Part shown: positions 16,481 through 60,503 of the stretch, piece by piece
Position numbering within the stretch: the stretch's first letter is position 1
Layout: each line of letters starts with the position of its first letter
Translations under genes and position numbers: made by a program
The notes under the pieces: generated by a model
Seen by the model: only the letters and a program-made list of their open reading frames with translations
The model's database searches: none
Told to the model about the DNA's origin: nothing
Assembly: GCA_965648905.1 (NCBI GenBank)
Contig: CBFGIT010000003.1
Location: 32,001 to 96,000 of the forward strand
Length of the DNA stretch: 64,000 nt
DNA from: a candidate division WOR-3 bacterium
GTDB lineage: Bacteria > Hydrothermota > Tepidihabitantia > Tepidihabitantales > Tepidihabitantaceae
Reading direction: 5' to 3'

Positions 16481-16499
16481 CTGCCAACTGAACCACGTG

Positions 16500-17528: not shown

Positions 17529-17533
17529 CAGGC

Positions 17534-18433: not shown

Positions 18434-18461
18434 AGGCCGGATATGTTATGCGAACGTGGGG

Positions 18462-45330: not shown

Positions 45331-47037
45331 CTATTCAAGCATCGGGATTCTGATGCCATGCTCTCGCGCCACCTCTCGCGCGTCTTCATACCCGGCATCA
45401 GCATGGCGGCAGATTCCAGTGCCCGGGTCGTTCGTCAGCACGCGCTTCAGGCGCTCGTCCATCTCGGGCGTGCCGTCACAAACAATCACCTGACCAGCGT
45501 GGATTGAGTAGCCGATACCAACCCCACCGCCATGATGGATTGAAACCCAGGATGCACCGGACGCAACATTGAGCATCGCATTGAGCAGCGGCCAGTCTGC
45601 CACTGCGTCCGAACCGTCCAGCATCGCCTCGGTCTCGCGGTTCGGCGATGCGACCGAGCCGGTATCAAGATGGTCCCGGCCGATAACAATCGGCGCCTTG
45701 ATTCGGCCCTCGCGCACGGCTCGATTGAACGCCAGCCCGGCTCGTTCCCGCTCGCCGTACCCGAGCCAGCAAATTCGGGCCGGCAGCCCCTGAAAAGGTA
45801 TTGCCTCGCCTGCTTTCTTCAGCCAGTTGAGTAGCGGTCGGTTGTCCGGGAACAACTCGGCAACAATCCGGTCAGTCTCAGCGATGTCTGCCGGGTCACC
45901 AGAGAGCGCGACCCAGCGAAACGGCCCCTTGCCCTGGCAGAACAGGGGCCGAATGTACGCCGGAACAAAACCCGGATACTTCCATGACCCGACCTTGCCC
46001 GGAGTCCTGATTTCTGCCTCAGGCAGAAGCCCGCCCTCGACCGCCTTGCCCCGCAGATTGTTGCCGTAGTCGAAAGTCACTGCTCCCATCGACTGAAGTC
46101 TAAGCATCAACCGGACGTGCTCAGCCATGGTCTGGTACGAGGCTTGGCGGTATGCGGCCGGGTCTGCCTGACGGAGTCTTAGCGCCTGCTCAAAAGACAT
46201 CCCAACCGGCACGTACCCGTTCAGCTCGTCATGGGCTGATGTCTGGTCTGTAAGGATGTCAGGCACAACCTGGCGGCTGACCAGACGCTTGAGCAGGTCC
46301 ACAATGTTTCCGCACCAGGCAACCGACCATGCCTGACGTCTTGCCTTCATATCCAGCGCACGGTCAATCGCCCTGTCCAGGTCATCAATCCGTTCGTCAA
46401 GATAGCGCGGTTTCTGGCTTGCCATCCGGCGTGCTATCCGGCTCGGGTCAACCTCAGCGCCAAGATAAGCTGCACCGGCCATGGTTGCAGCCAGGGGCTG
46501 GGCTCCGCTCATCCCGCCCAGACCGCCTGAGACGACCAGCCGGCCCGAAAGGTCACCTGACCCAAAGTGCCTCACGCCCGCCGCCACGAATGTCTCGTAT
46601 GTCCCCTGCAGGATTCCCTGAGTCCCGATATAAATCCACGACCCGGCGGTCATCTGACCGTACATCATCAGACCGGCCTGTTCCAGCTCATCAAAGTACG
46701 GCTTGGTCGCCCAGTGCGGTACGAGATTGGAATTGGCAATCAGCACGCGCGGTGCGTGCGGCGCAGTACGGAACACGCCGACCGGCTTGCCTGACTGCAC
46801 CAGCATCGTCTCGTCGTTTTCGAGCGAACGCAGCGTGCGTACCAGCGCATGAAAACAGTTCCAATTCCGGGCGGCGCGGCCGGTTCCGCCGTAGACTACG
46901 AGTTCCCTCGGATTCTCGGCTACCGACTCATCCAGATTGTTCATGAGCATCCGCAAGGCCGCCTCCTGATGCCAGCCCTTGCAGGACATGGTCAGGCCGC
47001 GCGGCGCGGTGACGGGTCGATATTCAGCGTTCGTCAT
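45331..47037 (-). CDS. hutU: Urocanate hydratase
   Basis: [52 protein letters not shown]. Confidence 0.97.
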
Positions 47038-47262: not shown

Positions 47263-48249
47263 ATGCACTCGACGTTTGATGAAGGTAAGCGGAAACGCAG
47301 TGGCAACAGAAGCCTGGCCTTAGTGCTGGTGCTGGCTGTTGTCGCCCTGGCAGTTGTGATTGTCGTGCTAGTAGCCAAGTCCGGTGACGGTCGGACGGTC
47401 AAAGTGCCGGAATTGAAAGGCAAGGACATGACTGCGGCAGCCGAGCTTGCCGCCAAGAGCAGTCTTGTTGTCAAAGAACAAGCTCGGGTGAAGCACGACA
47501 CTGTGCCGGTTGGATGCGTTGTTACCCAAGTTCCAGACCCAGGCACCAAGGTTGAGAAAAACGACACTATCTTGGTGACGGTCAGCCGGGGCCGGATGAG
47601 CAATGTCCCGGCTCTGGCCGGGTTCAAGAAAGACGATGCACCCGCCGAACTGGGCCGGGCTGGGCTGTCTTTGGGCAAGGTGAGCGTGGCCTCGTCGAAC
47701 GAGTTCCCGGCGGGCAGAATCATCAGCACGAGTCCGGAACCGGGAACTGAGGTCGAGCCAGACAGGCCGGTGGACATTGTTGTCAGTTCCGGGCCCAAGG
47801 TCGTGCCGCCACCGCAGGTTCCGACGTCGTTCCTCCGACCCGGGATGCGGCTTTCGTCAGTCGAGTTGAAAGAGCCGGACAGCCGCGGGTTCAACCTCGC
47901 AGTCGGGGTCGAGGTCGACAATCCCAATGCCATTGCCGGCGCAGTCAAAGGCTTCTACTACAAGCTCGAGGTTGACACCTTCTTCCTGGGCGACGGAAAG
48001 TATCTCTGCAACGTACCACTGAACCCGAACGAGAAGACGCAGGTATCGATTCTTGTCAACATCCGGCATGACCATATCGGTCCGGCCGCGGTCGCGCTCC
48101 TACGTCAGGGTGCGGTTGACTACCGCGTCCGCGGCTACTACGTCCTTGAGGCCCAGGGCGGCCGCTCATTCGAGTCCGTCTCCGCAAGCGGAACCTTCAA
48201 CCTTGCCGACAAACTCGGGCCGTATCTGAGGAGGATCTATGGCAACTGA
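47263..48249 (+). CDS. Membrane-anchored 2xPASTA + LEA_2 domain protein
   Basis: N-terminal TM, two VP.L.G...G.V/II.Q/T.P.PG..V...VS.G PASTA repeats, V.NPN LEA_2 motif. AAGGAGG RBS. Confidence 0.8.
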   Translation: MHSTFDEGKRKRSGNRSLALVLVLAVVALAVVIVVLVAKSGDGRTVKVPELKGKDMTAAAELAAKSSLVVKEQARVKHDTVPVGCVVTQVPDPGTKVEKNDTILVTVSRGRMSNVPALAGFKKDDAPAELGRAGLSLGKVSVASSNEFPAGRIISTSPEPGTEVEPDRPVDIVVSSGPKVVPPPQVPTSFLRPGMRLSSVELKEPDSRGFNLAVGVEVDNPNAIAGAVKGFYYKLEVDTFFLGDGKYLCNVPLNPNEKTQVSILVNIRHDHIGPAAVALLRQGAVDYRVRGYYVLEAQGGRSFESVSASGTFNLADKLGPYLRRIYGN

Positions 48250-48736
48250 AGATACTCGTTGCTCATCACTCATGACTCCTCACTCATCACTCATCTTCCT
48301 CTGCTCATTACTCATCGCTCTGTCTCTTTTCACCGGCTGTGCCACGCTGATGAGGGGTACAGCCGGTGCTATCCTGCTGCAGATGGCGCCGATCGGGCTC
48401 GAGCTCTTCGAGCTGCCGGCCAAGCTCGACCTGAAGGTCACCAACCCGTACCCGGTCAACGTCCGCATCTCCAACGTCAAGTACGAGGTGCTGATTGAGG
48501 GCAGGTCTATTGCCCGGGGCGAGCAGGCGAGTGAAACCATCGTACCCAAGGAAGGCTCGGTCGTGCTCTCAGTACCGCTGTCCATCAGTGCCGGTGAGGC
48601 GCTCTCCGGCATCAAGACCACACTGACCCGGCGCGGGGTCAAGTACCAGGTACGCGGCTCCTACACGGTTGCGTCTGAAACCGAGAGCGAGTTCCGGGTT
48701 TCGTCGCTTCTGAAACCGCTGCTCAGGCGAAAGTGA
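48239..48736 (+). CDS. LEA type 2 family lipoprotein
   Basis: Lipobox FTGC, LKVTNPYP, Y.V.I.G..IA.G, YQVRGS. Confidence 0.75.
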   Translation: MATEDTRCSSLMTPHSSLIFLCSLLIALSLFTGCATLMRGTAGAILLQMAPIGLELFELPAKLDLKVTNPYPVNVRISNVKYEVLIEGRSIARGEQASETIVPKEGSVVLSVPLSISAGEALSGIKTTLTRRGVKYQVRGSYTVASETESEFRVSSLLKPLLRRK

Positions 48737-48772
48737 AATGAGCATACCCGGGCGGGCGACAAGTTGTCGGCC

Positions 48773-50122
48773 ATGATTGGTTCAACTGTCGGGGACTACC
48801 GTGTCACCGAGAAGCTCGGGGCCGGTGGGTTCGGCGTTGTGTACAAGGCCGTGCACCGCATGTTGGAACAGGAAGTCGCCATCAAGACCCTGGACCCGAT
48901 TCTCACCCGCGACCCCAAGTTCCGCCAGCGGTTCTTTGACGAGGCCCGGACCCAGGCCCGGCTCAAGCACCCGAACATCGTCGTACTGCACAACTTCTTC
49001 GAGTACGACGGCCAGTACTTCATCGTGATGGAATACGTCGAGGGCGTGAATCTGGCCGGCGGCCAGTTCGCCCGCACCCTTTCCGACCTCATCAAGCCGG
49101 GCCCGATTCCGGAACCACGAATCATCGCCATTGCCCGCCAGATTCTCGACGGTGTAGGCTGTGCCCACGAACACGGCGTGCTCCACCGCGACATCAAGCC
49201 CCTGAACGTTCTCCTGACCGAGAAAGGGCTGGTCAAGATTGCCGACTTCGGCATCGCCAAGATTGTCGGTGGCGACACGAGCGTATCGGTCTCAGGCACG
49301 CGGGTCGGCACTGCGCCTTACATGTCGCCCGAACAGGTACTGAACGAACCGCTCACCCGCGCGTCAGACATCTACTCTCTCGGCATCACCCTGTATGAGA
49401 TGGCCGTAGGCGAAATTCCGTTCAAGGCAACCTCGACCGAGTCGATTGAGAAACAACACCTGTACGCGCCGCCGCCGCCCCTGCGCAAACGCAACCCTTG
49501 GATTTCCGAGAACTTCGAAGCCGTGGTCCTCAAGGCACTGGCCAAGAAGCCGGAGGAACGGTTCCAGACCTGCGAAGAGTTTTCTGCCGCTCTTGAGGGA
49601 AGAGGCACGGCACCGCAGCCGCGACCTGTGTCTCAACTCGAAGTCACCCGGCCCGAGCCGCCTGCGCCGCGCTCTGAGCTGAGTACTCCGCGCTCTTCGC
49701 CCGTCGATTCTCGCGACCCCGCATCCCGAAACCGCCGTCGGGCCGGGTTGTACATCGGACTGGCAGCAGCAGCTATTGCCGCAGCCGTGGGCATTGGCCT
49801 GCTGCTCAGGCCGAAGCAGGCGCCACTGCCAGAGTCGGGGCCGGCCCGCGTCGAGATGCCCGAGCTTGCCGGCATGGCACTTGCGGACGTGCAGGATGCA
49901 GTACGGCAAAGAGGACTGGTTCTGGTCGGGGTAGACAGCATTCTGACTGACGACGTTGCCAAAGGCAGGGTCGTTTCCTTTTCGCCGGGTGCCGGCACCA
50001 GTGTCATGCGGGGCGACTCAGTACGCATCACCTATTCCTGGGGTCGCAAGACCTGTCCGGACTGCAGCACCCCCCGAAACAAGACTGCCCGATTCTGCAC
50101 CAAGTGCGGGTACAAGTTCTAG
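48773..50122 (+). CDS. Hanks-type Ser/Thr kinase with TM, PASTA and C-terminal zinc ribbon
   Basis: GAGGFG, VAIK, HRDIKPLN, DFG, GT.PYMSPEQ, TM, PASTA, CPDC...FCTKCG. Confidence 0.92.
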   Translation: MIGSTVGDYRVTEKLGAGGFGVVYKAVHRMLEQEVAIKTLDPILTRDPKFRQRFFDEARTQARLKHPNIVVLHNFFEYDGQYFIVMEYVEGVNLAGGQFARTLSDLIKPGPIPEPRIIAIARQILDGVGCAHEHGVLHRDIKPLNVLLTEKGLVKIADFGIAKIVGGDTSVSVSGTRVGTAPYMSPEQVLNEPLTRASDIYSLGITLYEMAVGEIPFKATSTESIEKQHLYAPPPPLRKRNPWISENFEAVVLKALAKKPEERFQTCEEFSAALEGRGTAPQPRPVSQLEVTRPEPPAPRSELSTPRSSPVDSRDPASRNRRRAGLYIGLAAAAIAAAVGIGLLLRPKQAPLPESGPARVEMPELAGMALADVQDAVRQRGLVLVGVDSILTDDVAKGRVVSFSPGAGTSVMRGDSVRITYSWGRKTCPDCSTPRNKTARFCTKCGYKF

Positions 50123-50132
50123 CGATGAACCG

Positions 50133-50167
50133 CTGACGGCTCACAGCCGACAGCCTACAGCAATCAG
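50133..50167 (+). repeat. Heptamer array (CnnACAG-like x5)
   Basis: ctgacgg ctcacag ccgacag cctacag caatcag. Confidence 0.7.
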
Positions 50168-50227
50168 CGAATGCCCTCTCCCTCGACGGGCGCTGCGCCA
50201 GCTACGCGCCGGGTCGTCTGCTTCCTG

Positions 50228-50255
50228 TTGACACGGCACAGCAGTCAGCTACATT
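50228..50255 (+). promoter_or_regulatory. Promoter TTGACA-N16-TACATT, probably leaderless
   Basis: 6 nt separate the -10 box from the GTG at 50262. Confidence 0.55.
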
Positions 50256-50261
50256 TGACCG

Positions 50262-51776
50262 GTGCCGCAGACATATCCTGCTCCGCGCTCATCACCCGCT
50301 GCTCGTCGTTCATCCCTCGCTCATCGTCTTGTCCTCATCTCCCTTCACTCACTACTCATCACCCTCCTCCTTTTTTCGCTCGCCGCGAAGAAGTGCCCGC
50401 AGTGCGGCCGGGAGTACGACGACAGCCAGAACTTCTGCGCCGAGTGCGAGGATGCTGAAGGCAGGCCGGTGCGGCTCAGGGCCGTGCCGGCAAAGCCCAG
50501 GGAGAAACCGAAGGTGCAGGGAACCGTGATTCTGTCCGGCGACACCCTCGTTGTTTTGTCGACTCCGTCCGGTGCCGCAGTCAAGGTTGATGACCGGTAC
50601 GTGGGTAATACGCCGGACACTCTGGTCGGTCTGGGCCTCGAAGTGGGCGTGCACTCAATCCAACTGAGCGCACCCGGCCATACCGACTTCACGACCGAGC
50701 TCGAAGTCCGTCCGGTCGTACCGGTCGCAGGCCGGGTTCTTGCTGCTCCGGAAAGCCTGTTCTTCTTCTCCGAACCAGTCGGTGCCGAAGTGCTGCTCGA
50801 CGGCAGACCGGCAGGCAACACGCCGGACACTGCGGTCGGGCTCAAGCCGGGCAGGCACGTCGTGGTAATGAACCTGACCGGCTTCCTGCCCTGTACCACC
50901 GAGGTCGAGGTACCCTTGCCGGTCAAGGTCTTCCTCGGCCGAACCACTGCGGGCCACGAAGAGTGGCTCTGGCTCAAGGATTCGTCAGTAATGGTAAGAA
51001 TCCCGGCGGGCGAGTTTGAAATGGGCAGCGCAACGGCCGACGACCCACGTGACGAGCGACCCCTGCACCGGGTATACCTTGACGAGTACCTCATCGACAA
51101 GTACGAAGTCACCAACCACCAGTTCGAGAAGTTCGTGACCGAGACCGGATACAAGACCGAGGCTGAGAAAGCCGGCGTTGGCTGGTACTTTGTGACTCAG
51201 ACACCAAAATGGGAAGCAAGAAAAGGAATAAGCTGGCGGACTTTCTTCACGCCGGAAAGGAAAGACCATCCGGTCGTGCTCGTTTCGTGGAACGACGCCA
51301 GGGCCTACTGCGACTGGGCTGGCAAGAGACTGCCAACCGAGGCTGAGTGGGAAAAGGCAGCGCGTGGCACTGGTACGAGGACATTTCCCTGGGGTGAGGA
51401 ACCACCAGACGCAGGCGGTGTGAACCGGGTCAACTGGGGACGGGGCATGAGACGGGAAGACCTTCTCCGTGACGGCTACGAACATACTGCGCCGGTCGGT
51501 ACCTTCCCTGCCGGCTCGTCGCCTTATGGCTGCATGGACATGGCCGGCAATGCTCAGGAGTGGTGTAACGACTGGTACGACCCGGACTACTACAGCACCT
51601 CAAGAACCACAGGCCGGAATCCGGCCGGGCCGGACTCAGGCTCAGCCCGGGTCCTGCGCGGCGGCTCGGCCTACAGCCAGACAAACGAACTCCGCTGTGC
51701 CGACCGCTTCTTCTGCCCGCCTGCTGCTGCCTATGACATCATCGGGTTCCGCAGCGCAGCAGGCACTGCCAAGTGA
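50262..51776 (+). CDS. Zinc-ribbon + 2xPEGA + FGE-sulfatase (CLec) protein; not a current target of this DGR
   Basis: CPQC..FCAEC, two S.P.GA.V..D....G.TP PEGA motifs, IPAG.F.MG, KYEVTN, RLPTEAEWEKAARG, DMAGN, RVLRGG, GFR. Confidence 0.88.
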   Translation: MPQTYPAPRSSPAARRSSLAHRLVLISLHSLLITLLLFSLAAKKCPQCGREYDDSQNFCAECEDAEGRPVRLRAVPAKPREKPKVQGTVILSGDTLVVLSTPSGAAVKVDDRYVGNTPDTLVGLGLEVGVHSIQLSAPGHTDFTTELEVRPVVPVAGRVLAAPESLFFFSEPVGAEVLLDGRPAGNTPDTAVGLKPGRHVVVMNLTGFLPCTTEVEVPLPVKVFLGRTTAGHEEWLWLKDSSVMVRIPAGEFEMGSATADDPRDERPLHRVYLDEYLIDKYEVTNHQFEKFVTETGYKTEAEKAGVGWYFVTQTPKWEARKGISWRTFFTPERKDHPVVLVSWNDARAYCDWAGKRLPTEAEWEKAARGTGTRTFPWGEEPPDAGGVNRVNWGRGMRREDLLRDGYEHTAPVGTFPAGSSPYGCMDMAGNAQEWCNDWYDPDYYSTSRTTGRNPAGPDSGSARVLRGGSAYSQTNELRCADRFFCPPAAAYDIIGFRSAAGTAK

Positions 51777-52282
51777 AGTTCATTTCTCCCGCTCACGACC
51801 CATCGCCCTCGGCTCCTCGCTTCCCTCTCAGCACCCTCCATTCATTACTCATCACTCTCTTCTTCCTTTCCGGCTGCAATCTACTGCTCAAGCCGGCCGA
51901 GGTCGAGCTGGTCGGACTCGCGTTCTCGGGCGAGCGGGTGGTTGACTTAAGCGTCAGGATTCGCAACCCCAATGCAGTCGCAGTCCGGGCGTCAGAGGTG
52001 GAGTACACGGTAAACATCGGCCCAGAGGTCATCGGCCAAGGCAGGACATCTGAAGTCATCAAGCTTGGGCCCAGGGGCTCGGTGGTCACCCGGTTTCCGC
52101 TGAGCTATGACCTGGCAGCGATGGTGCGGGCCATACCGCAGCTTACCCGTGACACGGTTGTCTGCCAGGTGCAAGGCAGCTACCGGCTCGAAGCACTCCT
52201 GTTCCGCCCCAAGCTCAGGTTCGCAGTTGAACGGCGCGTGGCAGTGAAGCATGAGTTGCTCAACATCCTGAGAGGCAAATGA
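51773..52282 (+). CDS. LEA type 2 family lipoprotein
   Basis: Lipobox LSGC, VRIRNPN, EYTVNIG..IGQG. Confidence 0.75.
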   Translation: MKFISPAHDPSPSAPRFPLSTLHSLLITLFFLSGCNLLLKPAEVELVGLAFSGERVVDLSVRIRNPNAVAVRASEVEYTVNIGPEVIGQGRTSEVIKLGPRGSVVTRFPLSYDLAAMVRAIPQLTRDTVVCQVQGSYRLEALLFRPKLRFAVERRVAVKHELLNILRGK

Positions 52283-52295
52283 GACAGACAAGCAG

Positions 52296-54764
52296 ATGAC
52301 GAAGCTGAAAGTACTCATTGGCCCGAACCCGGGTCAGGAAATCGAAGTCACGGGTGCGGGCGTGCTGTTCGGCTATCGCGGTGAGAAGCTGAGGGCCGCG
52401 GCTGCGAACCGCGCTGCGTATGGCCTGCCCGAATCGGGCGAACTCAGGCTCGTTGAATACCAGGACCCAGGCCATACGTTGTCCGGCCTGCATGCCTGGG
52501 TCGGGTTCAACCGCCAGGGCGAGCTTGTGGTCCGGGACCTGGGCTCAAGGAACCACGTCTATGTCGGTTCAAGCGACGAGCCGGTCAAGGAGGCGCGGCT
52601 CAGGCACGGCGACAAAGTCAGGCTTTGTCGCGGCGGGGCAGTGACCTTCTCGGTCGAACTCGAAGAGCAGCCTGCCTGTGGCGCGACAATCCACGGCCCA
52701 GTGCCGTGCCCGGCGCCCGGGCAGCCTGCGGTCGTGAAGATGCCCGGCAACGTGCTCACCATCGGCCGGGCCCCGGACAACGACCTTGTGCTCGACTTTC
52801 CCCAGGTGTCGCGCCACCACTGCCGGATTGTGCGCCAGGACGACGGCACGCACATTCTTGACCTGAACTCGACCAACGGCACTTTTGTCAACGGCCATCG
52901 GGTGAAACAGGCCCGGCTTGCGGTCGGCGATGTCATCAACCTCGGTTCCTACGCGCTCTGCTTTGAGCAGGACCGGCACTTCAGCCAGGCCAGCCCAGCC
53001 GGTCGTGCCAGCCTTGTCTGCCACGACATCCGCAAAGCAGTCAAAGACAAGGTCATTATCCAGGGCATCTCGTTTGTCTCCTGTCCGAGCGAGTTCACCG
53101 GCCTTGTCGGTACCTCAGGCTCGGGCAAGACCACGCTCCTGAACGTCATCACCGGCTACGACAACACCGCGACCGGCCAGGTGCTGCTCAGCGGGGTTGA
53201 CCTGTACGAGCACTACGATGCTCTGCGCGGCAATATCGGCTACGTGCCGCAGGATGATATCATCCACCGGACTTTGACTGTGGAACAATCGCTCTACTAC
53301 ACTGCCCGGCTCAGACTGCCGGAAGACACGACCAAAGACGAAGTTCGGCGCCGGGTGGACAAGGTGATTGCCGACCTTGGTCTGGAAGGCTGTCGTCACG
53401 TGCGCATCGGTGACCCGGTGAAGCGCGGCATTTCCGGGGGCCAGCGCAAGCGGGTCAACCTTGCTCAGGAACTCATCACCGAGCCGGCCTGTCTTTTCCT
53501 GGACGAGCCTTTGTCCGGGCTCGACCCCTCGACCGCGGTTGAAGTTACCGAAGTCCTTGCCGACGCGGCCCGCAGCGGCCGGAGCGTCATTCTCACCACG
53601 CACAACGTCGAGTCGCCCCGCACCTTTGAGGTGCTCGGGCTGGTGCTCCTGATTCATGCCGGCCGCCTGGTCTACTATGGCCCGGCCCGCGAGGTCTTCG
53701 ACTACTTCGGATTCGGCCGCGACTACCCGCCCACTGTCCTTTCTCATCTCCAGGGCAAGTACTGTCCCAAATGCGACCGGGCGTTTGTCAAAGCCACAGG
53801 CCCGGTGCGCGACTGCCCGGGCTGCCACGAAGACCTCTACAAAGACCCGGAGTACTGGGAAACGAAGTTCCGCAATTCTGCCTGGTATGCAAAATACGTG
53901 GCCGGCCGAATGGAGGTGAGAAGCGTCAGCACCGGGGTCGGCCGCAAGGTCAAGCGCCAGCAGGCCAACGGACTGCGCCAGTGGTGGATACTGGTTCAGC
54001 GCTACTGGAAGATGAAACTCGCCGACACTGCCGGCACCGCGGTCCTGATGGCCCAGGCCCCGGTCATCGCCGTGCTCATCGGCCTGGTGTTCGGCAACAA
54101 AGGCTACCAGTACATGGGCGGGGTGCTGTTCATGATGGCACTCGCTGCCATCTGGTTCGGCGCAACCAACTCCTGCCGCGAAATCGTGGCCGAGCTTTCG
54201 GTCTACCGCCGCGAGCGGATGGTCAACTTGAAGATTGCGCCCTACATCCTTTCCAAGGCATTTGTCCTTTCGGTCTTTCTGCTGGTCCAGTGCCTGGTGC
54301 TTGCTACCATCGTCAAGCTGATGGTCAAACAACTGCCCGGCAGCATACCGGGTTTCACTGCGGTGCTCTTGCTCGGCGCGGTTGGCGGCTCAAGCATGGG
54401 CCTGCTCATCTCGGCCCTGCTCTCCTCGACCGAAGGCGCGATGGGTCTGGTCCCGGTCACACTCATACCTCAGGTCCTCTTTGCCGGCATGGTTGTGTCC
54501 TTGCCTCAGCTCGGCCCGATGAAGTTCCTGGCCAACTTCATGGTCTCGCGCTGGGTCCTTGATGCGCTCTCTCATTTCAGTACCAGGACCACCGGCGAGG
54601 TCATCACTGCTCTGGCCGCGACCGAAAAGGGCGGAGCAATCTTCTACTGGTTCGACGAGATGCCGAGCCTCGGCATGTCGCTCGACGTCCTCATCCTCCT
54701 TGTGCTCACCGTAACCTTCACCATCCTCACCGGCATCGCGCTCAAGGCGAAGGACATAGTTTGA
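52296..54764 (+). CDS. FHA-FHA-ABC ATPase-ABC2 permease fusion (Rv1747-like architecture)
   Basis: FHA motifs (GR.PDND, VSRHH, DLNSTNGTFVNG; first FHA degenerate). Walker A GTSGSGKT, ISGGQRKR, FLDEP. Multi-TM C-terminus with REIVAE...YRRER. Confidence 0.9.
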   Translation: MTKLKVLIGPNPGQEIEVTGAGVLFGYRGEKLRAAAANRAAYGLPESGELRLVEYQDPGHTLSGLHAWVGFNRQGELVVRDLGSRNHVYVGSSDEPVKEARLRHGDKVRLCRGGAVTFSVELEEQPACGATIHGPVPCPAPGQPAVVKMPGNVLTIGRAPDNDLVLDFPQVSRHHCRIVRQDDGTHILDLNSTNGTFVNGHRVKQARLAVGDVINLGSYALCFEQDRHFSQASPAGRASLVCHDIRKAVKDKVIIQGISFVSCPSEFTGLVGTSGSGKTTLLNVITGYDNTATGQVLLSGVDLYEHYDALRGNIGYVPQDDIIHRTLTVEQSLYYTARLRLPEDTTKDEVRRRVDKVIADLGLEGCRHVRIGDPVKRGISGGQRKRVNLAQELITEPACLFLDEPLSGLDPSTAVEVTEVLADAARSGRSVILTTHNVESPRTFEVLGLVLLIHAGRLVYYGPAREVFDYFGFGRDYPPTVLSHLQGKYCPKCDRAFVKATGPVRDCPGCHEDLYKDPEYWETKFRNSAWYAKYVAGRMEVRSVSTGVGRKVKRQQANGLRQWWILVQRYWKMKLADTAGTAVLMAQAPVIAVLIGLVFGNKGYQYMGGVLFMMALAAIWFGATNSCREIVAELSVYRRERMVNLKIAPYILSKAFVLSVFLLVQCLVLATIVKLMVKQLPGSIPGFTAVLLLGAVGGSSMGLLISALLSSTEGAMGLVPVTLIPQVLFAGMVVSLPQLGPMKFLANFMVSRWVLDALSHFSTRTTGEVITALAATEKGGAIFYWFDEMPSLGMSLDVLILLVLTVTFTILTGIALKAKDIV

Positions 54765-54799
54765 TGACCGCCACCAGCTCACAGCCGACAGCCCACAGT
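54765..54799 (+). repeat. Heptamer array, left arm of an inverted pair
   Basis: tgaccgc caccagc tcacagc cgacagc ccacagt. Confidence 0.75.
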
Positions 54800-54803
54800 T
54801 AGT

Positions 54804-55169
54804 ATGCGGGACATCAGAAGCTATGCCGTGTTCAAACTGGCAGACAGACTGGTGCTGGACGTGTACCGGGCCACCGCGCGATTCCCGAAAAGCGAGCTGT
54901 TTGGTCTGACATCCCAGATGCGGCGGGCAGCGTACTCGATTCCCATGAACCTGGCTGAAGGCGCGGCCCGGCGAAGCCAGAAGGAGTTCGCCCGAGCGGT
55001 AGACATTGCTGTCGGCTCTTGCGAAGAAGTGCGTTACCAGCTACATCTCGCGGCCGAACTCGGCTACCTGGAGCGTACGATTGCCCACAGAATCGATTCT
55101 GAGTATGAACAAGTCAAGAAGATGCTGTCGAAGCTCTTGCAGCGGCTGTCCGAGACCCCGGAGCTGTGA
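54804..55169 (+). CDS. Four-helix-bundle protein (23S rRNA-IVP family, Avd-like fold)
   Basis: VY..T..FPKSELFGLTSQMRRAA.SIP.N.AEG.AR, GS.EE..YQL. Confidence 0.92.
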   Translation: MRDIRSYAVFKLADRLVLDVYRATARFPKSELFGLTSQMRRAAYSIPMNLAEGAARRSQKEFARAVDIAVGSCEEVRYQLHLAAELGYLERTIAHRIDSEYEQVKKMLSKLLQRLSETPEL

Positions 55170-55190
55170 GCTGTCGGCTGTAGGCGGTCA
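55163..55190 (-). repeat. Heptamer array, right (inverted) arm
   Basis: Reverse complement reads tgaccgc ctacagc cgacagc tcacagc. Confidence 0.75.
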
Positions 55191-55193
55191 GCG

Positions 55194-57140
55194 ATGATTG
55201 GCTCCACCGTCGGCAACTACCGCCTCGTCGAGGAAATCGGCCGGGGCGGAATGGGCACGGTGTACAAGGCTGTGCACGTGCGCATCGCGGAACAGGTTGT
55301 TGCCGTGAAGCACCTTGCGCCCCTGCTCATCTTCGGCGACTCAGGCGCGGCCCAGCGGGCCAAAGAAGAAGCCAGCTCTCAGGCCCGGCTCAAAGACCAC
55401 CCCAACATCGTCTCGCTCTACGACTACGTCGAGACCGGCGAGGGGCTGTTCCTGATTATGGAGTACGTCCGCGGAGTCCAGGGCATGCGCAACATGGCCG
55501 AGCTGGTCCGGCGCTGCGGGCCTCTGCCTCTGGACGAGCTGAAGCGACTGTTCGGCCAGGTTCTCTCCGCGGTCGGGTTCGCGCACAGACAGGGCATCAT
55601 CCACCGCGACCTGAAGCCCCTGAATATCATGCTCTCCGAGTTTGGGGCCAAGGTCGGCGACTTCGGTATTGCGCGGATTGTGTCCGGCGACACCAGCGTC
55701 TCGGTCTCGGGCCACCGCGTCGGCACTCCGGCCTACATGTCGCCGGAGCAGGTGCTGTACAAGAAACTGACTCGGGCGACCGACATCTACTCGCTTGGCT
55801 GCACCCTGTATGAACTGGCAACCGGCAGGCTGCCGTTCAAGGCTTCGGAAACCTCGTCCTTCTTCGAGGCGCACTTACAGGACCCGCCAATTCCGCCGCG
55901 CTCGGTCAACCCGGCGCTTCCTGAGCGGCTTGAACAGGTCATCCTCAAAGCCATGGCCAAGAAACCGCAAGACCGGTTCCAGACCTGCGAAGAGTTCGCC
56001 GCGGCGCTCCAGAGAGTGGGTGTGGCTTCGCAACCGCGGCCCGAACCGGCTGAACCACTACCAGACAAGACCAGACCCGAGCCGGAGCCGACCCCGAAGC
56101 CCCAGCCCGGACCCCTGCCTGAGTTGCAAGACGAAGCGCGAAGGCCCAGGCGCGGCCGCCGGGCGGGGTGGCTGATTGGCCTGAGCCTTGCCGGCGTGGT
56201 CGCGATTGCCGTGACTGCGGCCTTGGTCCGCGCTCCTCGCTCCTCGCCCAGCGTTCAGCATTCCTATTCCTCCCCGGGCCGTGAGCTGTCAGCGGAAAGC
56301 GGTTGGCGTTCTCTGGGCCGCAACGCTCAGGGCTATGACGAAATCCTCTGGCTCAAGGACTCGTCGGTGATGATACGAATCCCGGCCGGTGAACTCTGGA
56401 TGGGCAGTGCTGAGGGCGAAGGTGCCAGCGACGAGCGGCCGCAACACAAGGTCTACTTGAGCGAGTACTACATCGACAAGTACGAGGTGACGAACGAGCA
56501 GTTCGAGCGGTTTGTGAAAGCGACCGGCTACCAGACCGATGCCGAGCGGCTCGGGTCAGGCTATGTCGATGACAAGGGCTCCTCGAAATTGATAGACAAG
56601 AAAGGCGTGAGCTGGCGCACTTACTATGGCTACGCCACGAGAAACCACCCGGTTGTGCTCGTGTCGTGGAACGATGCCAAGGCCTATTGTGACTGGGCGG
56701 GCAAGCGGCTGCCGACCGAGGCCGAATGGGAGAAAGCAGCGCGTGGCACTGACGCGCGCAAGTATCCCTGGGGCAACAGCGAACCCGACGGAAGTCGGTG
56801 CAATTACGCAGACAAGAACACCGACTTCTTCTGGCGCGATGCCAACGATGGATACGCTCAGACTGCGCCGGTCGGCACGTATCCTGCTGGTGCTTCGCCC
56901 TATGGCTGCATGGACATGGCAGGCAATGTCTGGGAATGGTGCAATGACTGGCGTGACGGAGACTACTGCAGCACAAGCCCGAGCAACAACCCGGAAGGGC
57001 CGTCGTCTGGCTCGTTCCGCGTCCTCCGTGGCGGTTCCTGGGCCCTCGATGCCAGGTTCCTGCGCTGCGCTCGTCGGGCCGGGGGCGTTCCATCGCTCCG
57101 GACCTACTTTCTGGGCTTCCGTTGTTCCTTGCGTCAGTAG
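55194..57140 (+). CDS. Receptor Ser/Thr kinase-TM-FGE/CLec protein; DGR target 1
   Basis: GRGGMG, VAVK, HRDLKPLN, DFG, GTPAYMSPEQ. RRPRRGRR then TM WLIGLSLAGVVAIAVTAALV. FGE domain. C-terminal VR. Confidence 0.95.
   Translation: MIGSTVGNYRLVEEIGRGGMGTVYKAVHVRIAEQVVAVKHLAPLLIFGDSGAAQRAKEEASSQARLKDHPNIVSLYDYVETGEGLFLIMEYVRGVQGMRNMAELVRRCGPLPLDELKRLFGQVLSAVGFAHRQGIIHRDLKPLNIMLSEFGAKVGDFGIARIVSGDTSVSVSGHRVGTPAYMSPEQVLYKKLTRATDIYSLGCTLYELATGRLPFKASETSSFFEAHLQDPPIPPRSVNPALPERLEQVILKAMAKKPQDRFQTCEEFAAALQRVGVASQPRPEPAEPLPDKTRPEPEPTPKPQPGPLPELQDEARRPRRGRRAGWLIGLSLAGVVAIAVTAALVRAPRSSPSVQHSYSSPGRELSAESGWRSLGRNAQGYDEILWLKDSSVMIRIPAGELWMGSAEGEGASDERPQHKVYLSEYYIDKYEVTNEQFERFVKATGYQTDAERLGSGYVDDKGSSKLIDKKGVSWRTYYGYATRNHPVVLVSWNDAKAYCDWAGKRLPTEAEWEKAARGTDARKYPWGNSEPDGSRCNYADKNTDFFWRDANDGYAQTAPVGTYPAGASPYGCMDMAGNVWEWCNDWRDGDYCSTSPSNNPEGPSSGSFRVLRGGSWALDARFLRCARRAGGVPSLRTYFLGFRCSLRQ
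57008..57132 (+). repeat. DGR variable region VR1
   Basis: 125 bp, colinear with TR. 24 mismatches, all at TR adenines. Confidence 0.97.
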
Positions 57141-57212
57141 TCTTATCTGTGAATCTGGTAATCTGGGAATCTGAATATCTGGTCTTCCTACAGCGGCGGC
57201 GAAGCGGCCGCT
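57133..57212 (+). promoter_or_regulatory. DGR target-recognition region 1: IMH end, 5xATCTG array and GAA-loop hairpin
   Basis: 57110..57189 is identical to 60401..60480. Hairpin AGCGGCGGC-GAA-GCGGCCGCT (57192..57212) has one mismatch. Confidence 0.75.
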
Positions 57213-57225
57213 CGCGCGCATTTCT

Positions 57226-57576
57226 ATGGCAAAGACTGAGTTCCTGGTGATTCAGCGGAGCTACGATTTCACGAAATGGCTGCTTCAGCACACGCAGAAG
57301 TTTCCTAAGTCGCTTCGCTTCTCACTGGCGGTCAGAATGGAGAACCGTATGCTGGAGGCGCTGGAGTCAGCAGTGGTTGCCAACATGAAGCGGGACAAGC
57401 TCACGTTGCTGGCGCGGGCTGATGAGGCATTGGAGTCGCTTCGGATACTGGTGCGGCTCAGCTTTGAGATGAAGGTGCTGGCCGCCAACTCCTACGAGTA
57501 TGCGGCCAGGGAACTGGATGAAATTGGCAAACTTCTGGGCGGCTGGATACGGCAGCAAAGCCGGCCGACCGGTTGA
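57226..57576 (+). CDS. avd: DGR accessory variability determinant
   Basis: YD...WL.....KFPKS.RF.L..R, L..LR.LVRL, YE.....L.EIGKLLGGW. Immediately precedes TR. Confidence 0.92.
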   Translation: MAKTEFLVIQRSYDFTKWLLQHTQKFPKSLRFSLAVRMENRMLEALESAVVANMKRDKLTLLARADEALESLRILVRLSFEMKVLAANSYEYAARELDEIGKLLGGWIRQQSRPTG

Positions 57577-57591
57577 GGGCACAGGCAGAAA

Positions 57592-57716
57592 TGGCTCGTA
57601 CCGCGTCAACCGTGGCGGTTCCTGGAACAACGATGCCAGGAACCTGCGCTGCGCTAATCGGAACAGGAACGAACCATCGAACCGGAACAACAATCTGGGC
57701 TTCCGTTGTTCCTTGC
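57592..57716 (+). ncRNA. DGR template repeat (TR)
   Basis: Reads GSYRVNRGGSWNNDARNLRCANRNRNEPSNRNNNLGFRCSL with 11 AAY codons and 29 adenines. Lies between avd and RT. Confidence 0.97.
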
Positions 57717-57746
57717 AGCAGTTGCAGCATGACCGCCGAACTGATG

Positions 57747-57768
57747 CCGCCGGTTCACGGACCGGCGG
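57747..57768 (+). other. Hairpin in the TR 3' spacer (DGR RNA structure)
   Basis: CCGCCGGT-TCACGG-ACCGGCGG, perfect 8-bp stem. Confidence 0.6.
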
Positions 57769-58046
57769 ACTGCGGCGAGCGGCTACTGAAGTGCCTGTTT
57801 CCTGAGTCTGCGCCACTCTTCCCGCCGTCTTTGCGAGGGCTGCGGATTGAGGCGCGGTGTAGACCAAAATGGAGGAGTCCGGGTGCCGGCAATTGAGCGG
57901 TCTTCGTCAGCCAAAGTCGGCACCCGGGCGCTGACGCCGGCGACCCCTCATTACATGAGGGACACTGGGGAAGCAAGCAGGGCGTTCAGGGTGACTCGGC
58001 GGTGTTGTGTTCTCGAGCCGCCGGCTAGGGGTCGTCGGGCCGGGCA

Positions 58047-58319
58047 CCGGCGACTCCTCGGAGACCCTCGGAGTGACAGCCCCTCTGTCATTCCGAGGAA
58101 CGAAGCGACGAGGAATCGCCGGGCTGCAGAGCAACTCGGAGTGACAGCCCTTCTGTCATTCCGAGGAACGAAGTGACGAGGAATCGCCGAGCTGCAGGAC
58201 AACCATGAAACAGTATTACGTCCCCCCTTCCGCCTTCCGCCGACCGGCGACTCCTCGGAGAACCTCGGAGTGACAGCCCCTCTGTCATTCCGAGGAACGA
58301 AGTGACGAGGAATCGCCGG
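58047..58319. repeat. Three REP-like palindromic repeats (58047..58122, 58135..58189, 58244..58319)
   Basis: Core CTCGGAGTGACAG-CCCYT-CTGTCATTCCGAG followed by GAACGAAGYGACGAGGAATCGCCG. Copies 1 and 3 add an outer CCGGCGACTCCTCG arm. Confidence 0.9.
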
Positions 58320-58322
58320 CCG

Positions 58323-59372
58323 ATGCCGCCCAGTCTTAGCGGGTTGTTCGACCGACTGACGAGCTTCGACAACCTGCTGGCCGCGTTCCTGAAGGCCCGA
58401 CGCGGTAAGCGCCTCAGACCGGCGGTCGCTGCGTTCGAGTTGGACCTTGAACACGAGCTTCTCCGGCTGCAGGACGAACTGACTGCCGGCACCTGGCGGC
58501 CCGGCAGCTACCACAACTTCTACGTCCACGACCAGAAGCGCCGGCTGGTCACCGCAGCATTTTTCCGCGACCGGGTCGTGCACCATGCTCTGCTGAACGT
58601 ACTGGAGCCGGTGTTCGAGCCTTCGTTTCTCTACGATTCGTATGCCTGTCGCCGCGGCAAAGGCCAGCATCGAGCGATTTGCCGCTACCAGCGCTGGTCG
58701 CGTGGACACCAGTACGTCCTGCGCGGCGACATACTCAAGTTCTACCCGAGCGTTGATCACGCGATTCTCCTGCAGTTGCTGAGCCGGAAGATCCGAGACC
58801 GAAGAGTCCTTGCCCTGTGCACGATGATTGTCCGGAGTGGGACCGGAATCCTGGACTCGGAGTATCGGATTACCTGGTTTCCGGGTGATGACCTGTTCTC
58901 GCCCCTGGGGCGACCGCGCGGCATTCCCATCGGCAACCTGACCAGCCAGTTCTTTGGCAATGTCTACCTGAATGAGCTGGACCACTTCGTGAAAGAGCAA
59001 CTGTGCTGCCGGTGCTACCTACGGTACATGGACGATGTCGCGGTGTTCGGGGATGACCCGAGGTCACTGGCGCTGGCAAAGCGGCGTATCAGCGAGTTTC
59101 TGGCCGGCCTGCGGCTGACCCTGCGCCCGGAGAAGACGCGCGTCTGGCAGACCGGCGACGGAGCCGAATTCCTCGGGTTCCGCGTATTCCCCGGGCATCG
59201 GCTGGTGCGTAAGGCCACGGCCTATCGGTACGGCCGGCACCTGAGACGGTTGAGTCGCAGGCAGGTGCGTGCATCTCTGACTGCCTGGTTCGGGCACGCC
59301 TGCCACGCCGATTCGTTCCGACTGAACGCCGAGCTTCTGAGACGGGCCGGGCTGCTCGCCGTGTGGTGTTGA
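58323..59372 (+). CDS. DGR reverse transcriptase
   Basis: NL..AF.KARRGK, KRRL, FRDRVVHHAL, SYACR.GKG.H, DI.KFYPS.DH, GIPIGNLTSQFFGNVYL, YLRYMDD, FLGF. No maturase or endonuclease domain. Confidence 0.97.
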   Translation: MPPSLSGLFDRLTSFDNLLAAFLKARRGKRLRPAVAAFELDLEHELLRLQDELTAGTWRPGSYHNFYVHDQKRRLVTAAFFRDRVVHHALLNVLEPVFEPSFLYDSYACRRGKGQHRAICRYQRWSRGHQYVLRGDILKFYPSVDHAILLQLLSRKIRDRRVLALCTMIVRSGTGILDSEYRITWFPGDDLFSPLGRPRGIPIGNLTSQFFGNVYLNELDHFVKEQLCCRCYLRYMDDVAVFGDDPRSLALAKRRISEFLAGLRLTLRPEKTRVWQTGDGAEFLGFRVFPGHRLVRKATAYRYGRHLRRLSRRQVRASLTAWFGHACHADSFRLNAELLRRAGLLAVWC

Positions 59373-59396
59373 CAAGCCTGTCCTGCTTGCTAGATT
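59369..59396 (+). promoter_or_regulatory. Promoter TTGACA-N16-TAGATT overlapping the RT stop, probably leaderless
   Basis: TG precedes the -10 box. 6 nt separate the -10 box from the ATG at 59403. Confidence 0.6.
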
Positions 59397-59402
59397 TACC
59401 GC

Positions 59403-60431
59403 ATGCAAAGGCAGACGAGGAGCGGGTTCCGCGTTTCGCGTTTGGTGCTCATCGTTCTCCTCGGTCTTTTCGTCCTCCTCTCCCTCGCCGCGAAGAAGTG
59501 CCCCAAGTGCGGCAAGGAGTACGACGACGACCAGAACTTCTGCGCGATGTGCGAGGACTCCGCGGGCGGGCCGGTCCGGCTCAAGCCGGTCGAGAAGCCC
59601 AGACCCAAGCCCAAGGCGCCAAGAGCCGAAAGCTCACAGCCGCAAGCTCCGGCCGGGACACAGTATGTCTCGCGGGGCCGCAACGCTCAGGGCTATGACG
59701 AAATCCTCTGGCTCAAGGACTCGTCGGTGATGATACGAATCCCGGCCGGGGTCTTCACGATGGGCTCAGATGACGGAGGGAGCGGCGAGAAGCCGGTGCA
59801 CCAGGTCTATCTCGATGAGTACTACATCGACAAGTACGAGGTGACGAACCGCCAGTACAAGAAGTTCTGCGACGCAACCGGCCGGAGTTATCCGCCTGAC
59901 CCGGACTTCCTTGCCATGGCTAATTACATCACGAACTACCCATCTTACCCGGTTGTCAATGTCTCATGGGAAGACGCCAAGGCCTACTGTAACTGGGCCG
60001 GCAAGCGGTTGCCGACCGAAGCCGAATGGGAGAAAGCAGCCAGAGGAACAGATGCGAGGAAGTATCCGTGGGGCAATTCGGAGCCGAATGCCGGCGGAAT
60101 CTACCGGGCGAACTACGACCCCGGGAGCTACACCGAAGACGGGTATGCCCGGACAGCCCCAGTCGGCTCCTTCGAGCGCGGCGCGAGTCACTACGGCTGT
60201 CTGGACATGGCAGGCAACGTCTGGGAATGGTGCAATGACTGGTATGACGAGAACCACTACAACGCAAGCCCAAGAAACAACCCGCAAGGCCCTTTGTCTG
60301 GCTCGTACCGCGTGCTCCGTGGCGGTTCCTGGGGCATCGATGCCAGGTACCTGCGCTGCGCTTATCGGTTCAGGCTCGATCCTTCGTACCGGAACTACTA
60401 TCTGGGCTTCCGTTGTTCCTTGCGTCAGTAG
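59403..60431 (+). CDS. Signal/TM + zinc-ribbon + FGE/CLec protein; DGR target 2
   Basis: Hydrophobic N-terminus, CPKC..FCAMC, FGE motifs, C-terminal VR. Confidence 0.95.
   Translation: MQRQTRSGFRVSRLVLIVLLGLFVLLSLAAKKCPKCGKEYDDDQNFCAMCEDSAGGPVRLKPVEKPRPKPKAPRAESSQPQAPAGTQYVSRGRNAQGYDEILWLKDSSVMIRIPAGVFTMGSDDGGSGEKPVHQVYLDEYYIDKYEVTNRQYKKFCDATGRSYPPDPDFLAMANYITNYPSYPVVNVSWEDAKAYCNWAGKRLPTEAEWEKAARGTDARKYPWGNSEPNAGGIYRANYDPGSYTEDGYARTAPVGSFERGASHYGCLDMAGNVWEWCNDWYDENHYNASPRNNPQGPLSGSYRVLRGGSWGIDARYLRCAYRFRLDPSYRNYYLGFRCSLRQ
60299..60423 (+). repeat. DGR variable region VR2
   Basis: 125 bp. 16 mismatches at TR adenines plus one synonymous C>G near the 5' end. Confidence 0.97.
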
Positions 60432-60503
60432 TCTTATCTGTGAATCTGGTAATCTGGGAATCTGAATATCTGGTCTTCCTCTAGCGGCGGCGAAGCCGCC
60501 GCT
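60424..60503 (+). promoter_or_regulatory. DGR target-recognition region 2: IMH end, 5xATCTG array and perfect hairpin
   Basis: AGCGGCGGC-GAA-GCCGCCGCT at 60483..60503. Confidence 0.78.

Follow-up and report, generated by a model that had tools for sequence, protein, structure and literature searches.

Organization of the gene cluster

A cluster of 11 tightly spaced genes was analyzed at positions 47263–60431 of a 64-kb window (the whole stretch of DNA under study) on contig CBFGIT010000003.1 from a candidate division WOR-3 bacterium, the genome of which (G000) has 3.0 Mb and is 99.6% complete. The cluster encodes two Hanks-type Ser/Thr kinases, an ATP-binding cassette exporter with FHA domains (FHA-ABC), LEA_2 lipoproteins, and a diversity-generating retroelement (DGR) with an Avd accessory protein, a template repeat (TR), and a reverse transcriptase (RT). 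All genes lie on the plus strand, as do all window features described below, and they are bounded by opposite-strand genes for a urocanase (45331–47037) and a beta-propeller protein (60970–63318). In gene order, the intergenic gaps are −11, 36, 139, −4, 13, 39, 24, 85, 725, and 30 nt; that of 725 nt, from Avd to RT, contains the TR and repeats, and the others span −11 to 139 nt. Pfam searches recovered all domains listed by the initial annotation, which had been made from the sequence alone, in the order given there, and a hydropathy script predicted one transmembrane (TM) helix per kinase and, for each exported protein, a signal peptide or an N-terminal anchor. Scans for promoters (4 promoter-like sites versus 1.9 expected) and terminators (13 terminator-like sites versus 11.3 expected) were uninformative. 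Among public sequencing runs, compared at the contig level only, no RNA run was listed for the stretch, the best DNA match was a hot springs metagenome (0.15 of the sampled words), and most aligned pieces were conserved-domain fragments from other organisms.

The exporter gene (52296–54764) encodes, as assigned by Pfam and hydropathy, a divergent FHA domain (FHA-1), a canonical FHA domain (FHA-2), an ABC nucleotide-binding domain (NBD), a Zn ribbon, and a six-TM ABC-2/ABCG-type domain. Residues 245–762 aligned with ABCG half-transporters (AtABCG25, ABCG2, and ABCG1; 8i38 with E = 6e-50), and the Walker A, signature, and Walker B motifs are present. FHA-2 carries the residues that function in phosphothreonine binding by FHA domains (G-R158, S172-R-H-H, and N194-G), and the pattern GR..SRHH..NG was invariant in 5/5 orthologs. 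Its best match in the PDB was FHA-2 of Rv1747 (6cah, E = 3.5e-15). FHA-1 retains Ser, His, and Asn, and its loop Arg varies. The Cys4 Zn ribbon (CPxC..CPxC) between the NBD and the membrane domain was invariant among the orthologs. Judged by its domains and alignments, the protein is most likely an Rv1747-like half-transporter; T131, located just after FHA-1 and roughly conserved, is a candidate phosphosite in the inter-FHA linker.

Conservation in related genomes

Close relatives were taken from a search of 272 genomes of the phylum, 66 of which belong to the window's order. A full-length FHA-ABC ortholog was present in six of them, G000 counted; all six carriers lie inside the order (6/66 genomes; 4/26 genera), and a metagenome scan with the FHA-ABC protein gave a single relative, contig L094. 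The informative related loci were L003 (genome G001), L004 (G019), L005 (G021), L006 (G037), and L094; from G047 only a 1.6-kb fragment was obtained. The FHA domains of the exporter were the only FHA matches in five of the six carrier genomes (G000, G001, G019, G021, and G037), and the sixth (G047) has three FHA matches besides. In the order as a whole, FHA domains were found in 11 of the 66 genomes.

Conservation in relatives, on which the initial annotation had staked its reading, was evident: a core of PASTA kinase, FGE kinase, and FHA-ABC, joined by a LEA_2 lipoprotein in 4/5 loci, recurred in G001, G019, G021, G037, and L094, and synteny extends across four genera. At each of the five informative loci a Hanks kinase is encoded at most one gene away from FHA-ABC. 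An FGE-type kinase is visible in four of them, the fifth contig stopping after 72 kinase residues, and the LEA_2 lipoprotein upstream of the exporter (lipoprotein B) is likewise present in four. The whole cluster occurs in the same order in G021, with an additional membrane-anchored PP2C phosphatase. In L094 the full signaling set is found. The G019 locus encodes PASTA-LEA_2, LEA_2 lipoprotein A, a kinase with four PASTA domains, LEA_2 lipoprotein B, a kinase-PASTA-FGE protein, PP2C, and FHA-ABC, and that of G037 encodes PEGA/Zn proteins, a PASTA-Zn kinase, FHA-ABC, and the beginning of a second kinase gene that runs off the contig. The PP2C proteins of the orthologous clusters (L004:11446–12630 in G019 and L005:10482–11888 in G021) have a single TM helix and complete a circuit of kinase, phosphatase, and FHA domain in these two genomes.

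Two paralogous receptor kinases

The first kinase gene (48773–50122) encodes, according to Pfam, a Hanks Ser/Thr kinase domain, a TM helix (residues 329–347), one PASTA domain, and a C-terminal Zn ribbon. In the second (55194–57140), the kinase domain and TM helix (residues 327–345) are followed by an FGE ectodomain having a C-type-lectin (CLec) fold and containing a variable region (VR1), which makes the protein a hypervariable receptor kinase. Active kinases are defined by the VAxK, HRD, and DFG motifs, all of which are intact in the PASTA kinase (VAIK) and in the FGE kinase (VAVK). A TRPE motif is located at T295 in the former and at T293 in the latter.

In a maximum likelihood tree of 22 kinase domains, where several rows outside the PASTA/FGE pair were flagged as long branches, the orthologous PASTA kinases formed a clade with a support of 97/96 and the FGE kinases one with 100/99. 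The two were sister clades at 92/92, to the exclusion of the two other G000 kinases included, of a kinase from G180, another genome of the phylum, and of nine kinases encoded beside distant FHA-ABC genes. The kinase-PASTA-FGE protein of G019 nested in the FGE clade, which suggests that the FGE kinase arose when a duplicated PASTA kinase acquired a lectin domain.

A juxtamembrane T-x-P-[DE] motif is common to both kinases of a genome, with the pairs TRPEP/TRPEP in G000, TIPDP/TIPDP in G021, and TRPEP/TQPEP in L094. In G021, the juxtamembrane stretches of the two kinase genes are 95% identical at the DNA level. The motif would fit a shared docking or phospho-acceptor site.

The PASTA kinase, with a single PASTA domain after the TM helix, fell short of the PknB/Stk1 family model (NF033483, 340 bits versus a cut-off of 450). 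PASTA is regarded as an extracellular domain. In both kinases of G019 (L004:12752–14938 and 15699–18728) and in the G180 kinase (L087:5–1459), it has an unusual placement between the kinase domain and the sole TM helix, that is, on the cytoplasmic side by hydropathy. The view of PASTA as a fixed-specificity, peptidoglycan-binding input, put forward in the initial annotation, is therefore doubtful as a general statement.

The retroelement and its targets

The TR (57592–57722), found by repeat comparison, contains 31 adenines, mostly in AAC/AAT codons. Matched to it, VR1 (57008–57138) at the end of the kinase-FGE gene showed 26 mismatches, 25 of them at TR adenines. A second variable region (VR2, 60299–60429; 19 mismatches, 17 at TR adenines) was found in the last gene of the cluster (59403–60431), which Pfam assigned to an exported Zn ribbon-FGE/CLec protein. 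In both proteins, the variable region forms the C-terminal end of an FGE-sulfatase match (E = 1e-69 and 3e-67). A whole-genome search with the TR, each A being read as N, revealed a remote third one (VR3) on the minus strand of contig C9 of G000 (C9:86554–86684), where TR adenines account for 20 of the 21 mismatches. Its host is a 372-aa Zn-ribbon-FGE paralog (L092:8555–9670, minus strand), encoded beside subtilase and serpin genes. The third FGE-type gene of the cluster (50262–51776), for an exported Zn ribbon-PEGA-PEGA-FGE paralog with a signal or TM segment (Pfam), is not a target here: its C-terminal end lacks a TR match, and the A-to-N search did not retrieve it.

Avd (57226–57576) was identified by bAvd (E = 2.1e-22) and the NCBIfam model DivGenRetAVD (111.3 bits, cut-off 80), and the RT (58302–59372) by RVT_1 (E = 5e-19). 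The RT carries YMDD at residue 242 and IGNxxSQ at residues 210–216, in which SQ is typical of DGRs, and has orthologs in G001 and G021. The DGR is genuine, its components are intact, and its variable regions have undergone adenine mutagenesis in the past. Canonical DGRs (BPP-1 Mtd, Treponema TvpA) comprise an RT, Avd, a TR, adenine-specific changes in a C-terminal CLec variable region, and a GC-rich hairpin, and all these parts are present in the window DGR.

Unlike in canonical DGRs, however, the hairpin lies approximately 53 nt past the stop codon. All three variable regions share this 3′ element, a spacer of ~53–55 nt with ATCTGG-type repeats and then the GC-rich hairpin (spacer at 57139–57192 and hairpin at 57193–57215 after VR1; 60430–60482 and 60483–60503 after VR2). 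Behind VR2 and VR3, the hairpin consists of a 9-bp GC stem with a GAA loop; the VR1 copy is slightly degenerate. From the stop codon to the hairpin, the spacer (TCTGTGAATCTGGTAATCTGGnAATCTGAATATCTGG), which also follows the FGE-kinase gene in L094, G019, and G021, hardly differed between these and G000 (four genomes or contigs, three genera), and it was better conserved than the surrounding coding sequence. This strong conservation suggests that the spacer may act as an additional cis element for DGR target recognition; we know of no description of such an element for DGRs.

In G021, every one of the 24 mismatches between the TR and the kinase variable region falls at an adenine (24/24), and each of the three FGE genes in that cluster is a target. 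The 5.9-kb G001 contig has the order RT, LEA_2 lipoprotein B, FHA-ABC, four-helix-bundle protein, kinase-FGE. With the RT of G001 beyond the lipoprotein and exporter genes, and the third target of G021 at the far end of its cluster, the DGR parts interleave with the signaling module. No RT was found within 7.5 kb downstream in L094, the kinase gene of which ends in a VR-like stretch followed by the conserved spacer and an intact hairpin; the target is thus served from elsewhere, and the DGR link is closer than RT occurrence would indicate. A whole-genome search of G019 detected neither RT nor Avd. Its FGE-kinase gene, which retained the spacer next to a decayed hairpin, looks like a fossil DGR target.

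Two further features set the window DGR apart from the canonical ones. First, three copies of a 77-nt mini-repeat lie between the TR and the RT start (58046–58319); the TR and RT of G021 are just ~120 nt apart, as opposed to the gap filled by mini-repeats in G000. The mini-repeat contains an internal inverted repeat (GTGACAG..CTGTCAT), and its third copy overlaps the RT start codon. It is probably widespread, to judge by its very deep coverage in a set of RNA contigs. Second, a four-helix-bundle protein of the same superfamily as Avd (54804–55169; 23S_rRNA_IVP, Pfam E = 1.3e-34; TIGR02436, NCBIfam 119 bits, above the cut-off) is encoded upstream of the target kinase. This family has 11 matches in G000. 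At L003, L005, and L094, a copy immediately precedes the FGE-kinase gene, and all five copies found in clusters are located directly 5′ of an FGE-domain gene (the window gene; L094:7303–7638 and 12570–12890; L005:5297–5719; L003:4280–4660). L094, with two such genes, has retained them without a nearby RT. The protein may be a second Avd-like accessory.

Additional repeat-related stretches were observed elsewhere in G000. On C9, approximately 460 nt downstream of the VR3 gene, 63 nt (C9:86029–86091) are 92% identical to the TR with the adenines kept and may be a TR remnant. Contig C51 (L093:1–12995) carries a second FGE-rich cluster in which further FGE genes are accompanied by genes for an 803-aa kinase-AAA fusion, two more AAA proteins, and HEAT-repeat, GrpE-like, and Hsp70-like proteins. 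It also contains a weak Avd/IVP-like gene (715–1017) and, at 554–650, a segment with 73% identity to the TR; it may be a conflict-type system or an array of DGR targets that has degenerated.

Distant relatives and known systems

Outside the phylum, the best FHA-ABC relatives were at most 41% identical and came from Myxococcota, Planctomycetota, Bradymonadales, and Ignavibacteria, in a scan that may omit records near the window's genome. A Hanks kinase is encoded at 17 of 37 distant near-full-length FHA-ABC loci, within 3 kb at 10 of them. An RT is absent from all 37; an FGE domain is encoded at one, at a distance of 8 kb, and a LEA_2 lipoprotein directly upstream at one (L012). Pfam analysis of 144 flanking open reading frames from 27 distant loci agreed with these counts. 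The L012 operon of Ignavibacteria encodes Zn-FHA, VWA-FHA, PP2C, M48, LEA_2, an ABC protein with three FHA domains, trypsin-FHA, TPR, and two kinases. This FCB multi-FHA operon resembles the window cluster, and for the PP2C those of G019 and G021, in combining on one strand a PP2C, a LEA_2 lipoprotein 5′ of FHA-ABC, Hanks kinases, and Zn-ribbon proteins. It differs in having five FHA proteins (among them VWA-FHA, Zn-FHA, trypsin-FHA, and the ABC protein) and in lacking FGE, DGR, and PASTA, and its FHA-ABC is ~35% identical. The association of kinase and PP2C with FHA-ABC, sometimes with LEA_2, is thus older and wider, and the addition of FGE and DGR is lineage-specific.

The closest studied system is pknF-Rv1747 of Mycobacterium tuberculosis, where PknF was reported to phosphorylate Rv1747 on two linker threonines and to activate it (Spivey et al. 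2011, PMC3138270). There, as in the window protein, a single polypeptide joins a pair of FHA domains at its N terminus with an NBD and an ABC-2-type membrane domain, and a Hanks kinase is encoded beside it. The window cluster, in contrast, has two receptor kinases, one with a DGR-diversified ectodomain, together with LEA_2 lipoproteins, a PASTA-LEA_2 protein, and exported Zn-ribbon/PEGA/CLec proteins. Its exporter further differs from Rv1747 by the conserved Zn ribbon between NBD and membrane domain and by a much shorter inter-FHA linker. The lineages are different, and the likeness is one of domains and alignment.

Kinase-CLec fusions were described as the most common multidomain DGR variable proteins in cyanobacteria and called unique to that phylum (Vallota-Eastman et al. 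2020, PMC7517822). A 2024 survey of metagenome-assembled genomes (MAGs) lists Pkn1/PknD-annotated targets with a CLec variable region (PMC11661182), and Pkinase is among the DGR target domains given for Thiohalocapsa (PMC10907252). Kinase-FGE fusions are also abundant in public data and have a standard NCBI name. Both the published targets (PMC7517822, PMC11661182) and the FGE kinase have an N-terminal Hanks kinase domain and a C-terminal CLec/FGE domain with the variable region, and both are accompanied by CLec-only paralogous targets, some of them remote. Unlike the targets as presented in those reports, the window kinase is a single-pass membrane receptor whose fixed neighbors are an FHA-ABC exporter and a PASTA kinase sister to it. 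The retrievable text of the two reports names no downstream partner, and the term FHA is absent from that of PMC11661182. In the main text of Roux 2021 (PMC8144416), the words kinase, signaling, and transporter do not occur. No publication joining a DGR to an FHA-ABC exporter was found, although survey supplements, which lay outside the search, may list such targets. The initial annotation knew of no description of the arrangement; for the combination none was found here either, but the parts are not new, since kinase-CLec DGR targets and the PknF-Rv1747 pair have each been published.

Proposed function and alternative explanations

On balance, we favor, with moderate confidence, a PknF-Rv1747-type envelope phospho-signaling module with two paralogous receptor kinases, one FHA-gated ABCG-like exporter, and one DGR-hypervariable input. 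In such a module, both single-pass Hanks kinases would be active, one sensing through a PASTA and Zn-ribbon ectodomain and the other through a CLec (FGE) ectodomain, the ligand-binding tip of which would be rewritten by the adjacent DGR. The kinases would autophosphorylate the shared juxtamembrane T-x-P-[DE] site, phosphorylate the inter-FHA linker at a Thr (candidate T131), or both. The canonical FHA-2 of the half-transporter would read these phosphothreonines and, by the precedent of Rv1747, turn export on. The DGR (Avd, TR, and RT) would also diversify two exported Zn-ribbon-CLec paralogs, one in the cluster and one on C9, and the LEA_2 lipoproteins and the PASTA-LEA_2 protein would probably serve as extracytoplasmic accessories. 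Who phosphorylates whom, the export and its substrate, and the roles of the LEA_2, PEGA, and Zn-ribbon proteins are what we infer in this scheme. Indirect support for the convergence of both kinases on the exporter, as the initial annotation had proposed, comes from the sole FHA protein in five of six carriers, the sister relationship of the kinases, and the shared T-x-P-[DE] motif.

Several findings weigh against the proposed module. G019, without RT and Avd and with a decayed hairpin, indicates that the module works without a DGR, and its rarity (6/272 genomes) points to an accessory rather than a core function. Despite the high completeness of G000, no PP2C was detectable there with PF13672 or the G021 ortholog as query, which leaves signal reversal unexplained. 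A whole-genome profile search of G000 gave five Pkinase matches, two of them inside the cluster; with three further ones elsewhere, inputs other than the cluster kinases are conceivable, and Hanks kinases are promiscuous. The T-x-P-[DE] motif is short, lies in a Pro-rich linker, and is missing there in G037 and in one G019 kinase. FHA-1 is divergent, the Arg of its GYR motif not being kept in G021 or G037, and the short inter-FHA linker (~25 residues) has one roughly conserved Thr, compared with two mapped sites in Rv1747. Finally, LEA_2 is common in the phylum (148/272 genomes), and G037 shows no LEA_2 gene beside the exporter.

The alternative that fares best is that two unrelated units lie side by side, namely a housekeeping PASTA-kinase/FHA-ABC module and a DGR cassette whose kinase signals to unlinked substrates, their adjacency resulting from local kinase duplication. 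The module of G019, which exists without an RT, would agree with this, as would the diversification of a remote, nonsignaling target on C9 and the frequency of kinase-FGE fusions elsewhere that have no known link to FHA-ABC. The other DGR RTs of the phylum (G180, G074, and G075) were found on short contigs; kinases adjoin them in G180 and G074, and no FHA-ABC ortholog was found in these two genomes. Yet the FGE kinase is at most one gene away from FHA-ABC at all four loci where it is visible, from three genera and a metagenome contig, and the interleaving of DGR parts with the module in G001 and G021, the lack of any other FHA reader in five of the six carrier genomes, and the juxtamembrane motif common to both kinases also speak against mere juxtaposition, which we regard as unlikely.

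A conflict or defense system, in which DGR-diversified periplasmic lectin sensors would detect phage or competitor surfaces and a kinase cascade would trigger a protective or suicidal response via the transporter, appears distinctly unlikely. It would match the antigen-sensor reading of DGR targets in multicellular bacteria and the interpretation of DGR-CLec sensors fused to kinases or NTPases as conflict sensors (PMC7159879, PMC10907252); the second FGE and kinase-AAA cluster on C51 of the same genome and the patchy, accessory distribution point the same way. However, PADLOC returned only generic matches to kinases (PD-T4-6, mad6), ABC ATPases, and RTs and no match at the system level, Pfam detected no effector domain (nuclease, TIR, caspase, or pore-former) in the cluster proteins, and no mobile-element or defense-island genes were seen flanking the cluster. 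PASTA, LEA_2, PEGA, and the ABCG-like exporter instead point to envelope physiology.

Phosphorylated juxtamembrane regions of kinases are common ligands of FHA domains. Together with the T-x-P-[DE] site on both kinases and the absence from the cluster of a transcription factor or other obvious output gene detectable by Pfam, this would suit a reverse, Bce-like flux sensor, with FHA-ABC as a scaffold or co-sensor that docks on the phosphorylated kinases and tunes their output by transport, the true output lying elsewhere. This is very unlikely, given that the only studied homolog, Rv1747, is the regulated party and is activated by phosphorylation (PMC3138270), and that the linker of the transporter itself has a roughly conserved Thr, which fits intramolecular regulation.

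A bolder extension of the favored phospho-signaling module would be an evolvable sense-and-export circuit, in which a hypervariable input is wired to a fixed export output, the first defined effector of a DGR-diversified kinase. A newly recognized ligand would lead to phosphothreonine, read by the genome's only FHA protein, and thus to the ABCG-like exporter with its LEA_2 lipoproteins; the free Zn-ribbon-CLec proteins, likewise rewritten by the DGR, may be interchangeable co-receptors of the Zn-ribbon-tailed PASTA kinase, on which they would dock by way of their Zn ribbons. We consider this version speculative and, as a whole, rather improbable.

DGR-diversified Ser/Thr kinases are on record from cyanobacteria and from MAG surveys; on their signaling targets, the reports consulted give only general suggestions such as pathway tuning or antigen sensing. 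In the cluster described here, a hypervariable kinase is fixed across genera beside the sole phosphothreonine reader (in five of six carriers), which is part of an exporter. This provides a specific output hypothesis for hypervariable kinases that is testable with few components (the kinase domain, the FHA region, and a handful of threonines) and can be addressed in vitro without culturing the organism. The regulatory logic of PknF-Rv1747 would thereby reach into a distant uncultured phylum, where two paralogs would supply the sensory input.

Envelope-associated genes and repeats

The first gene of the cluster (47263–48249) encodes, by Pfam and hydropathy, a membrane-anchored PASTA-PASTA-LEA_2 protein without a kinase domain. 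Its two PASTA domains were matched with E = 1.9e-26 and its TM helix spans residues 20–38, whereas the LEA_2 match is weak (22.5 bits, under the cut-off of 25.4). Orthologs are present at L004/L091, L005, and L094. The overlapping next gene (48239–48736) encodes LEA_2 lipoprotein A (LEA_2, Pfam E = 2.6e-12; lipobox LFTGC), with orthologs at L004, L005, and L094. LEA_2 lipoprotein B (51773–52282; Pfam E = 1.5e-10; lipobox LSGC) is encoded directly upstream of the exporter, and its lipobox Cys was invariant in 6/6 aligned sequences, including that of L012.

A whole-genome profile search of G000 gave three LEA_2 matches, all inside the cluster. As a cluster-specific marker, LEA_2 was rejected on account of its occurrence across the phylum. 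A complex prediction for lipoprotein B (residues 36–169) and the dimer of the ABC membrane domain (residues 545–822) yielded a score of 0.00, which counts neither way. The basis for the LEA_2 lipoproteins as envelope partners, proposed in the initial annotation, is the adjacency of the genes, and the family is common in the phylum; together with the PASTA-LEA_2 protein, they probably act in the module as extracytoplasmic accessories.

Zn ribbons recur across the cluster (49982–50122, 50385–50450, 59490–59555, and residues 490–510 of FHA-ABC). Those at the C terminus of the PASTA kinase and after the signal anchors of the FGE proteins are predicted to be extracytoplasmic, and that of the exporter sits in the cytoplasm at the junction of NBD and membrane domain.

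Heptamer repeats (CTCATCA)n were observed at 48262–48317, 50348–50361, and 51841–51854, amounting to 7 matches in the window versus 0.38 expected. They are confined to the signal-peptide-coding 5′ ends of the genes for LEA_2 lipoprotein A, the Zn-PEGA-FGE protein, and LEA_2 lipoprotein B. Units of 7 nt within a leader are a classic arrangement for slipped-strand phase variation. The repeats encode a common HSLLITL stretch, and longer tracts were found at gene starts in L094.

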